Positions 5,949 through 6,571 of a DNA stretch of 13,276 bases are shown piece after piece. The stretch spans positions 1-13,276 of IMG/VR virus record IMGVR_UViG_2703718848_000021; one strand, 5' to 3'. Within the stretch, counting starts at the first letter, position 1. Each line of letters starts with the position of its first letter. The stretch comes from a virus (taxonomy: Duplodnaviria; Heunggongvirae; Uroviricota; Caudoviricetes). Under the pieces are notes generated by a model that was given only the letters and a program-made list of their open reading frames with translations, had not been told where the DNA came from and ran no database searches. The translations under genes and the position numbers were made by a program.

Positions 5949-6194
5949 TCACCGTCCTAATAGAACTGGAATACCGCTTACTGGCGATGTACTTCTACTT
6001 ATACTAGTAGCTGCATCATCATAACCAGTTACCCCAAGTGCCGTTAATTGACTTGATGCAATGAAAGTAAGTGCACCCGCTGCTGCACCCCATGCTGCCG
6101 CTACATATAAACTTGCCCCACCAGTCCAAGCTGCCGCAAATACAGCTACCGCCGTTATAATCGCACTAAAAAAACCGCCGCCTTTGCCGCCCAT
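5949..6194 (-). CDS. tail assembly protein, resembles the hydrophobic C-terminal region of lambda gpI
   Basis: 81 aa. [30 protein letters not shown]...GIPVLLGR resembles lambda I AGAKSGGVFQIVLGAAAIAGSFFTAG...NVLPVLYGE. ATG 6192-6194 overlaps the upstream stop (TAATG) with a GAGG SD 6-8 nt upstream. Sits immediately upstream of the J-like gene, as I does in lambda. Confidence 0.5.
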
Positions 6195-6571
6195 TATGAT
6201 TTCCTCACTCTATAGTATTTTCCATCTTTATATGGAATTAAATTAAACTTTGTATGATCTTCATCTACACCTAGTAGACGGTCGCTAAACACTACACCCA
6301 TTAGTAAGGGATTTTCTTCATCTAGCCAAATATCGCCATCAATAATAAATTCTACTTCATCGGCATATTCTAAAATAATTTCTTGTGTACTGTTATATCC
6401 TAAATCTTTGAGTTGTTTATAACCTTCTAGTACTGTACTGTATTGAGCAACATTAGCCCAATCAGTACCAGCACGTAGATCTAAAACTCTTAAACACAGG
6501 ATATTGCAATCATTGCTACCCATCTCATATGGCGTATTCAATGCAGTACTGCAAATATCGTATAAATCCAT
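6194..6571 (-). CDS. tail tip assembly protein at the K/I position (family unresolved; weak NlpC/P60-like pattern)
   Basis: 125 aa; ATG 6569-6571 with AAGGA SD 6 nt upstream. Call is by synteny between the L-like and I-like genes. NDCNILC...GDIWL...MGVVF...DEDH loosely resembles an NlpC/P60 Cys...His arrangement; no JAMM HxH motif. Confidence 0.4.

Follow-up and report, generated by a model that had tools for sequence, protein, structure and literature searches.

The DNA considered here, a stretch of 13,276 nt from a caudovirus (positions 1 to 13,276 of IMG/VR virus record IMGVR_UViG_2703718848_000021, called the window below), raises a question about the composition of its tail-tip module. 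Where phage lambda has gene K, encoding a 199 aa protein made of a JAB and an NlpC/P60 domain, and gene I, encoding a 223 aa protein with a ubiquitin-like domain, a Gly-rich hydrophobic segment and a C-terminal plug, the window has only two small open reading frames (ORFs) of 125 and 81 codons, placed between a hub-position ('L-like') gene and J-like coding sequence. A sequence-only reading of the window, which quoted the lambda sizes correctly, proposed either a reduced set of tail-tip assembly genes or a disrupted gene. As it also stated, the two ORFs (6571-6194 and 6194-5949) overlap in a TAATG; in the minus-strand sequence ...AAA TCA TAATG GGC GGC..., one A is common to the TAA of the 125 aa ORF and the ATG of the 81 aa ORF. 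Here we ask whether each of these ORFs is a gene in its own right and, if not, to what it belongs.

Organization of the tail module

All the genes of the window (Table 1) lie on the minus strand. In agreement with the sequence-only reading, which had seen no JAMM/MPN domain in any ORF, a Pfam search of the 18 larger ORFs of the window detected no Prok-JAB/MPN domain. NCBIfam offered no model for any of the six submitted tail-tip proteins. The hub-position protein carries the PGAP name 'DUF2163 domain-containing protein' in some copies of the element, and its position is kept in the closer relatives L006-L009 described below. The distal tail ORF is 243 codons long, shares about 100 nt (7835-7935) with the end of the tape-measure ORF and is started internally by gene callers; the long GTG-initiated form is probably an over-extension.

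Table 1. Features of the tail module in the window.
Feature	Position	Strand	Remarks
Tail fibre with Peptidase_S74 chaperone domain	13270-11525	minus	581 aa ORF
Tail tube protein	11444-10992	minus	
Two small chaperone-position ORFs		minus	between tail tube and tape-measure genes in transcription order
Tape-measure gene, two pieces	10238-9834 and 9820-7835	minus	134 aa and 661 aa
Distal tail protein	7204-7935	minus	phrog_1302 'distal tail protein', E 8e-17; annotated starts give 187-204 aa
Hub-position ('L-like') tail protein	6581-7225	minus	214 aa; phrog_2048 'tail protein', E 1.7e-26; 5' of the DUF6950 gene
DUF6950 gene, complete	6194-6571	minus	125 aa; K / RcGTA g14 position
81 aa ORF, J-like pseudogene fragment 1	5949-6194	minus	81 codons; premature TGA produced by the frameshift
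Frameshift site 1	5952-5960	minus	TTA GGA CGG TGA; extra base C at 5954
Apparent 37 nt 'intergenic spacer', in fact J-like coding sequence	5912-5948	minus	+1 frame
J-like pseudogene fragment 2, 400 aa ORF	4709-5911	minus	PF13550 (Phage-tail_3), E 2.8e-8; phrog_31 'central tail fiber J', E 1.2e-31
Frameshift site 2 in the J-like gene	4728-4736	minus	CCGCGG in the window, CCGGG in L003
J-like pseudogene fragment 3, 757 aa ORF	2488-4761	minus	Pfam fn3, E 4.9e-9; Phage_Tail_Tip, E 8.3e-21

Two observations concern the flanks of this module. Within the fibre ORF, 179 nt (window 11916-12094) are 98.3% identical to ltfp, the L-shaped tail fibre gene of Escherichia phage Bf23; this is the sole megablast match of the entire window in the phage collection, and it suggests that the fibre segment was exchanged recently with T5-like phages. 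On the 3' side of the tail module, an ORF for a SegE-like GIY-YIG endonuclease (1222-1596, minus strand) adjoins an opposite-facing phage lysozyme gene (1698-2144, plus strand), and this pair is also found in the intact relatives L006-L008.

The 125 aa ORF encodes a DUF6950 protein

The 125 aa protein falls in the Pfam family DUF6950 (PF22262; 36.7 bits against a cut-off of 27, residues 6-106 of 125) and is also a member of phrog_2134. Its gene has an AAGGA Shine-Dalgarno sequence 7 nt 5' of the ATG. A phmmer search of 1.8 billion representatives returned 18 relatives, which are stand-alone proteins of 127-145 aa, apart from a 78 aa fragment and two long proteins that match weakly and in part. 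We aligned the 125 aa protein with 20 homologues (alignment A2, 21 sequences with identities down to 18%). Residues G18, D21, C22, Y44, G50 and G79 are invariant in this alignment and N23, D31, G58 and D80 nearly so, and the Pfam DUF6950 model matches 21 out of 21 members (best E 3e-16). All 20 homologues stand alone at 125-145 aa, with C-termini within a few residues of a common ...YYR(V/I)RK position. Since the homologues end at the same place, the 125 aa ORF is a complete gene. An AlphaFold2 (AF2) model built from a 19-row alignment likewise shows a complete compact domain (pLDDT 95).

These results bear on the proposal, made in the sequence-only reading, that the two ORFs are halves of a single K/I-like gene from which an A had been lost at 6200-6202. 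Adding one A there does open a frame across the junction of the 125 aa and 81 aa ORFs, which is a mechanical fact, but the K-I fusion that it would create finds no counterpart among the stand-alone DUF6950 homologues. Moreover, in the contigs L006, L007 and L008 and in phages henriette and DCP80, the DUF6950 stop codon abuts or overlaps the start of the J-like gene just as it does here. Given these arrangements and the completeness of the modelled domain, we regard such a fusion as practically ruled out.

In the AF2 model, the DUF6950 protein adopts a papain-like alpha+beta fold in which a helix begins with the nucleophile Cys, as in the NlpC/P60 proteins of clan CA, and the family keeps an invariant Asp-Cys (the D-C nucleophile motif) where the NlpC/P60 helix starts. 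The catalytic His of canonical NlpC/P60 enzymes has no counterpart: no His is conserved anywhere in the 21-sequence alignment, and the equivalent position is occupied by M, L, S or T. The Pfam NLPC_P60 model matches none of the 21 members at E up to 10, whereas it matches lambda K at 3.4e-13. Comparison of the DUF6950 profile with PDB sequences gave chance matches only (E at least 0.12), tblastn of the 125 aa protein against the phage collection gave no match, and a full-text literature search found no paper on DUF6950. On this evidence DUF6950 is not a canonical Cys-His enzyme, and it may be a non-canonical or inactive papain-like domain. Because there is no conserved His and no match to the NLPC_P60 model, peptidase activity of the protein is uncertain.

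The 81 aa ORF matches the N-terminus of a J-like protein

Closer relatives of the module were reached through DUF6950 homologues at 54-67% identity and then through the contigs that carry them. Their genes follow the order tape measure, distal tail protein (188 aa), hub (206-207 aa), DUF6950 and one J-like ORF, and the tape measure is intact wherever the contig covers the gene. The Salmonella-assembly contig L006 has a single J-like ORF of 1067 aa and a tape measure of 740 aa. Two metagenome lineages have J-like ORFs of 1140 aa (L007, with a tape measure of 816 aa) and 1008 aa (L008/L009, in which the tape measure is cut by the contig end in L008 and lies outside the contig in L009). The closest deposited phages, Vibrio phage henriette 12B8 and Escherichia phage DCP80 (L001, PQ671644.1), share the module order of the window's family. 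Their DUF6950-like genes encode 129 and 138 aa (henriette and DCP80, the latter at L001 6337-6753) and their J-like products are 1227 and 1252 aa long, with a hydrophobic Ala/Gly-rich start followed by (L)P(L)VYGExRVGS. They differ from the window's family in having only 24-27% identity in the J body, in that their genes are intact and in their 107-141-kb phage genomes, as against a 32-kb prophage. The DCP80 gene for the 138 aa protein is unannotated in the deposited record, the taxonomy of which (Straboviridae, Gaprivervirus) looks inconsistent with a siphovirus-type tail module. In the comparison with related phages that the sequence-only reading had proposed, DUF6950 is followed directly by one long J-like gene in the intact relatives, with no separate 81 aa gene.

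The 81 aa ORF, which PGAP labels 'hypothetical protein' (WP_047086319.1), lines up with the first 80 residues of the intact J-like proteins in L006 (81% identity), L007 and L008, that is, with the hydrophobic Gly/Ala-rich N-terminal module of a J-like (megatron-like) tail-tip protein. The intact relatives cross the junction in one ORF of 1008-1140 aa, with the motif ...GSF(I/M)MCG.... In the junction alignment (A1), L006 is continuous, whereas the window has to be read in the frame of the 81 aa ORF and then in that of the 400 aa ORF. A DNA alignment of 16 loci locates the difference: the minus strand of the window has GGA-C-GGT-GAA where L006, L008, L009 and L019, a 76% E. coli variant, have GG(T)-GGT-GAA. 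The extra C at 5954 is found in the window and in 12 of 12 related loci at ≥95% identity, and is absent from those four. The frameshift-bearing sequence of this element is GGACGGTGA.

The 37 nt that seem to separate the 81 aa and 400 aa ORFs match, in the +1 frame, L006 and the equivalent segments of L007 and L008, and encode a conserved GELPHK..GSF segment; the database fragments P0028, P0030, P0032 and P0035 read through them. This apparent spacer is J-like coding sequence, a clade-specific insertion. We had considered a precise fission of the gene (a stop, a 37 nt spacer and a new start between the YG(E/R) and GS..W strands), an idea that came from DCP80 and henriette; it was dropped when the closer intact relatives revealed a coding insertion in the +1 frame.

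Because it aligns with L006 and deletion of a base restores the frame, the 81 aa ORF is not a gene of its own but the J-like N-terminal module cut off by a frameshift. In the native design of the family, an N-terminal module of ~80 hydrophobic, Gly/Ala-rich residues is followed by an (L/I)P(V/L)xxG strand; the inserted C shifts the frame just after this module, giving rise to the 81 aa ORF, a false 37 nt spacer and the 400 aa ORF. In a database search with the 81 aa protein as query, the other short proteins end variously with unrelated tails, or continue through GG(E/Q/S)xP(H/D)K. They represent other truncations of the same long gene and not a small-protein family.

It is conceivable that the tail-tip set is genuinely reduced, the 81 aa ORF being a separate gpI-like gene and the J body starting at the ATG at 5911. 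The ORF and its stop codon are conserved in the window and in all 12 loci at ≥95% identity, it is translationally coupled to the upstream gene through the TAATG, an ATG-ATG lies 37 nt 3' of it, and its substitutions are mostly synonymous (two synonymous and no non-synonymous changes relative to L003, five and one relative to L005). In lambda, furthermore, the equivalent module is a separate protein (PMC10721106). However, the sequence around 5954 is nearly identical between copies, so that conservation there reflects recent common descent. The 'spacer' carries the conserved coding segment described above, and a single base accounts for the whole difference between the 81 aa/400 aa split and the intact relatives. 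A stop at this position occurs in no diverged lineage, and the other short database homologues are cut elsewhere. In addition, copies with the 81 aa ORF carry more frameshifts in J and in other essential genes, and in L005-type copies one of these falls 14 nt after the proposed start of the J body. A separate gpI-like gene is therefore very improbable. What holds of the reduced set proposed in the sequence-only reading is that the family is natively compact, with a K equivalent of NlpC/P60 fold only; its other proposal, a disrupted gene, was right in kind, although the gene affected is the J-like one and the break lies at 5954, not at 6200-6202.

The J-like gene is interrupted more than once

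Severing of the N-terminal module is not the only damage to the J-like gene. A four-way DNA alignment shows that CCGCGG near 4732 (CCGGG in L003) separates the 400 aa from the 757 aa ORF in the window and in L004, and this second shift detaches the 757 aa ORF. Deleting C5954 and one base of this CCGCGG gives an uninterrupted ORF of 1234 aa from 6194 to 2488, and residues 1-1076 of the restored protein are collinear with residues 1-1036 of L006 at 63% identity. As expected of a J-like protein, Phage-tail_3, fn3 and Phage_Tail_Tip domains follow the hydrophobic start, in a polypeptide that is interrupted twice in the window. Other copies are broken in other ways: L003 and L005 by a TTT to TTTT change (+1) at 4472, L005-type copies by several clustered changes that include a +1 shift at 5897, and the 76% variant at yet other sites. 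We conclude that the J-like gene of the window is, by its reading frames, a pseudogene, and the broken J would make no functional tail tip.

The C-terminal ~250 codons of the J-like gene (window 2490-3300) show dN/dS values of 1.3-1.7 between copies and dense indels, as compared with 0.03-0.3 elsewhere in the module. This usually marks replacement of the receptor-binding end, or else reflects misaligned non-homologous cassettes.

A frameshift at a defined site might in principle be programmed, and a +1 shift of the ribosome at GGA-CGG-UGA would yield a full-length J-like protein. The shift required is indeed +1, it would occur at the rare Arg codon CGG directly before UGA in a manner superficially like prfB, and the site is conserved in many genomes. 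Yet there is no slippery codon for the P site, as re-pairing is impossible both from GGA to GAC and from CGG to GGU, and the more distant intact relatives lack the extra base rather than keeping the GGA-CGG-UGA site. The non-homologous shift at 4732 and the copy-specific ones at 5897 and 4472 would also need to be bypassed, and many other genes of the element are fragmented. Programmed frameshifting consequently strikes us as extremely improbable.

A more trivial cause would be an error of sequencing or assembly in the window, since indels of one base are typical of such errors and the damage extends to several genes. The extra base recurs, however, in sequences obtained independently by different laboratories, namely in complete genomes, draft assemblies and metagenome contigs. 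As the insertion at 5954 is present in the window and 12 other loci, and L004 is 99.85% identical to the window without gaps, we consider an artefact to be excluded for all practical purposes.

The module lies in a decaying prophage of Escherichia coli

The element is a ~32-kb prophage inserted in yegD, the two halves of which flank it, and one of its ends carries a large serine recombinase (prophage loci L019/L021, NZ_CM129855.1 1831831-1865423, and L018, NZ_CM135810.1). Twenty of the 5,426 complete E. coli genomes contain the region, 13 at ≥95% identity and seven at ~76%. The exact 125 aa protein was found in about 700 index blocks of the assembly collection and, among the matches listed, all eight of its places are bacterial contigs or chromosomes of 0.43-5.1 Mb, beside alkA and the gene for the 1105 aa diguanylate cyclase dgcE. 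A scan of species-representative genome contigs revealed no relative, the E. coli representative evidently being without the element. In WGI31CT the lysis-side end of the prophage abuts bssR/yliI and not yegD'/alkA, which implies a chromosomal rearrangement at the prophage.

Fragmentation of genes is widespread and differs between copies. In strain SW071611, where the yegD halves lie about 32 kb apart on either side of the element, the terminase is in three pieces and the portal, capsid/protease, fibre and J genes are each in at least two; the element of strain WGI31CT, 99.7% identical to the window, is broken up in the same way as that of SW071611. In the window, L004 and L005 the tape measure, which is intact (800 aa) in L003 and in L010-L017 (eight E. 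coli assemblies), is split by an additional A around 9872 (AAAA, as against AAA in L003).

Substitutions between copies are mostly synonymous even 3' of the shared frameshift, with a dN/dS of about 0.1 in the 400 aa fragment, which by itself could point to continuing selection. Divergence is, however, sharply mosaic, runs of zero differences alternating with blocks of 25-148 differences per 200 nt. A decaying element into which recombination has brought blocks from functional relatives would show such a pattern, which is a poor guide to present function; since the divergence is mosaic and recombinational, dN/dS between copies is uninformative on ongoing selection.

Taken together, we are highly confident that the window derives from a cryptic, decaying E. 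coli prophage and that the 81 aa ORF is a fragment of a frameshifted J-like pseudogene in a degenerate tail-tip module. It could be imagined that the shared frameshift has been tolerated or co-opted, the 81 aa peptide being expressed as a free, gpI-like, membrane-inserting peptide with a role at the level of the host, and that, separately, the DUF6950 protein acts non-enzymatically in tail-tip assembly as an NlpC/P60-fold protein without a Cys-His dyad. The 81 aa ORF is still coupled to the intact DUF6950 gene, which has good ribosome-binding signals. We think this improbable; were co-option true, the host-level role might be, for example, membrane permeabilization, exclusion or a toxin-like activity.

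Relation to lambda and RcGTA tail tips

The decayed module of the window and its intact relatives can be compared with well-studied tail tips. The sequence-only reading had likened the 81 aa product to the hydrophobic part of gpI, and profile comparison upholds this likeness: BLASTP aligns gpI 96-123 with residues 2-29 of the 81 aa ORF (39% identity over 28 aa, E 0.001 in a single comparison), and hhalign aligns gpI 98-132 with residues 4-41 of a profile of six J N-terminal modules (probability 85%, E 6e-6). Further along, gpI 188-211 (VLPVLYGEMRVGS...) matches DCP80 J 73-96 (E 4e-5, single comparison), and the VLPVLYGExRVGS strand of gpI 188-200 also occurs in the relatives. The regions are short and compositionally biased, and the likeness is best described as a collinear resemblance and not as proof of homology. 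The ubiquitin-like domain, to which the Lambda_tail_I model (PF06805) is confined (gpI 14-97 only), was matched by neither the 81 aa ORF nor the restored J N-terminus at E up to 10. The parallel comparison with gpK proposed in the same reading was less rewarding: the 125 aa protein does not match gpK significantly (BLASTP E 0.14; hhalign E 0.09, probability 0.6%), with a weak reciprocal hint in that lambda K 60-83 (the TDC motif) matches the DUF6950 model at E 0.067. At only one domain long, the 125 aa protein lacks the JAB/MPN N-terminal domain of the gpK family.

The 125 aa protein nevertheless shares with lambda K its position, the fold of its C-terminal domain and the register of the D-C and GD(I/V) motifs, and the Phage-tail_3, fn3 and Phage_Tail_Tip domains of lambda J are also found in the J-like body. 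Lambda differs in that K has a JAB/MPN and I a ubiquitin-like domain, both lacking in the window's family, and in that I is a separate protein, whereas the I-like module here is natively the N-terminus of J. In the cryo-EM structures of lambda, gpI 135-223 forms a trimeric plug in the lumen of the tip, which engages gpJ through beta-augmentation and grips the tape measure by its C-terminal helix; the hydrophobic stretch of gpI has been proposed to enter the outer membrane, and gpK was not found in virions (PMC10721106, PMC12617516).

A similar module is known from RcGTA and roseophage R4C, consisting of the distal tail protein g12, the hub g13, the peptidase g14 and the megatron g15 (PMC7296036, PMC10276861). 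There, g14 is an NlpC/P60-type peptidase of ~150 residues, encoded between hub and megatron, that is needed for particle formation and may be located in the lumen. At the start of the megatron, ~45 residues (RcGTA 1-46) form an iris that closes the channel, and the iris/penetration domain has been proposed to make an outer-membrane pore (PMC7296036, PMC10276861). The order of genes is the same as in the window's family: distal tail protein, hub, an NlpC/P60-fold protein of ~125-150 aa and a very large tip protein. The tip proteins of both have a hydrophobic start and a Phage-tail_3 domain, the likeness resting on order, fold and domains. In contrast to RcGTA, DUF6950 is without the canonical catalytic His, the big gene is broken in the window, the hub of the window has only three Cys, so that the four-Cys iron-sulfur site is not evident, and the C-terminal half of the J-like protein carries lambda-J-like fn3 and Phage_Tail_Tip domains.

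From these comparisons, DUF6950 is equivalent, in position and in fold, to the C-terminal half of gpK and to the g14 peptidase of RcGTA, and the J-like N-terminal module is, by analogy, a likely counterpart of the C-terminal two-thirds of gpI and of the RcGTA megatron's iris/penetration domain. In a functional relative, the N-terminal module would plug the tail channel and insert into the outer membrane at infection, and the DUF6950 protein might aid assembly of the tip or travel in the tail lumen to act on peptidoglycan.

Both traits of the family, the lack of JAB in the K equivalent and the joining of I-type sequence to J, have precedents in the variants described by Iyer, Burroughs and Aravind in 2006, who reported TAPI fused to TAPJ and TAPK with NlpC/P60 only (PMC1779556). 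Unlike in those fusions, the ubiquitin-like domain here is absent altogether and not fused. According to a prediction by the same authors, K uses its JAB domain to release the ubiquitin-like domain of I (PMC1779556), and a family without both domains is consistent with the predicted action of each on the other. The compact layout of DUF6950 plus J-like protein is thus an already described variant of the RcGTA/lambda type of tail tip (PMC1779556; PMC7296036).

Significance

The finding is explained and ordinary, and its main value is for annotation. The coding sequences that RefSeq/PGAP lists as an 81 aa 'hypothetical' protein, a 400 aa 'phage tail protein' and a 'fibronectin type III' protein are pieces of one pseudogene, and DUF6950 can be interpreted as a protein of NlpC/P60 fold that occupies the gpK/g14 position and has retained the Cys without the His. 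The fold assignment of DUF6950 and the missing pair of JAB and ubiquitin-like domains are small points that leave current understanding unchanged. The layout of the intact family, in which DUF6950 is paired with a J-like protein that includes an I-like N-terminus, belongs to a known type of tail-tip module.
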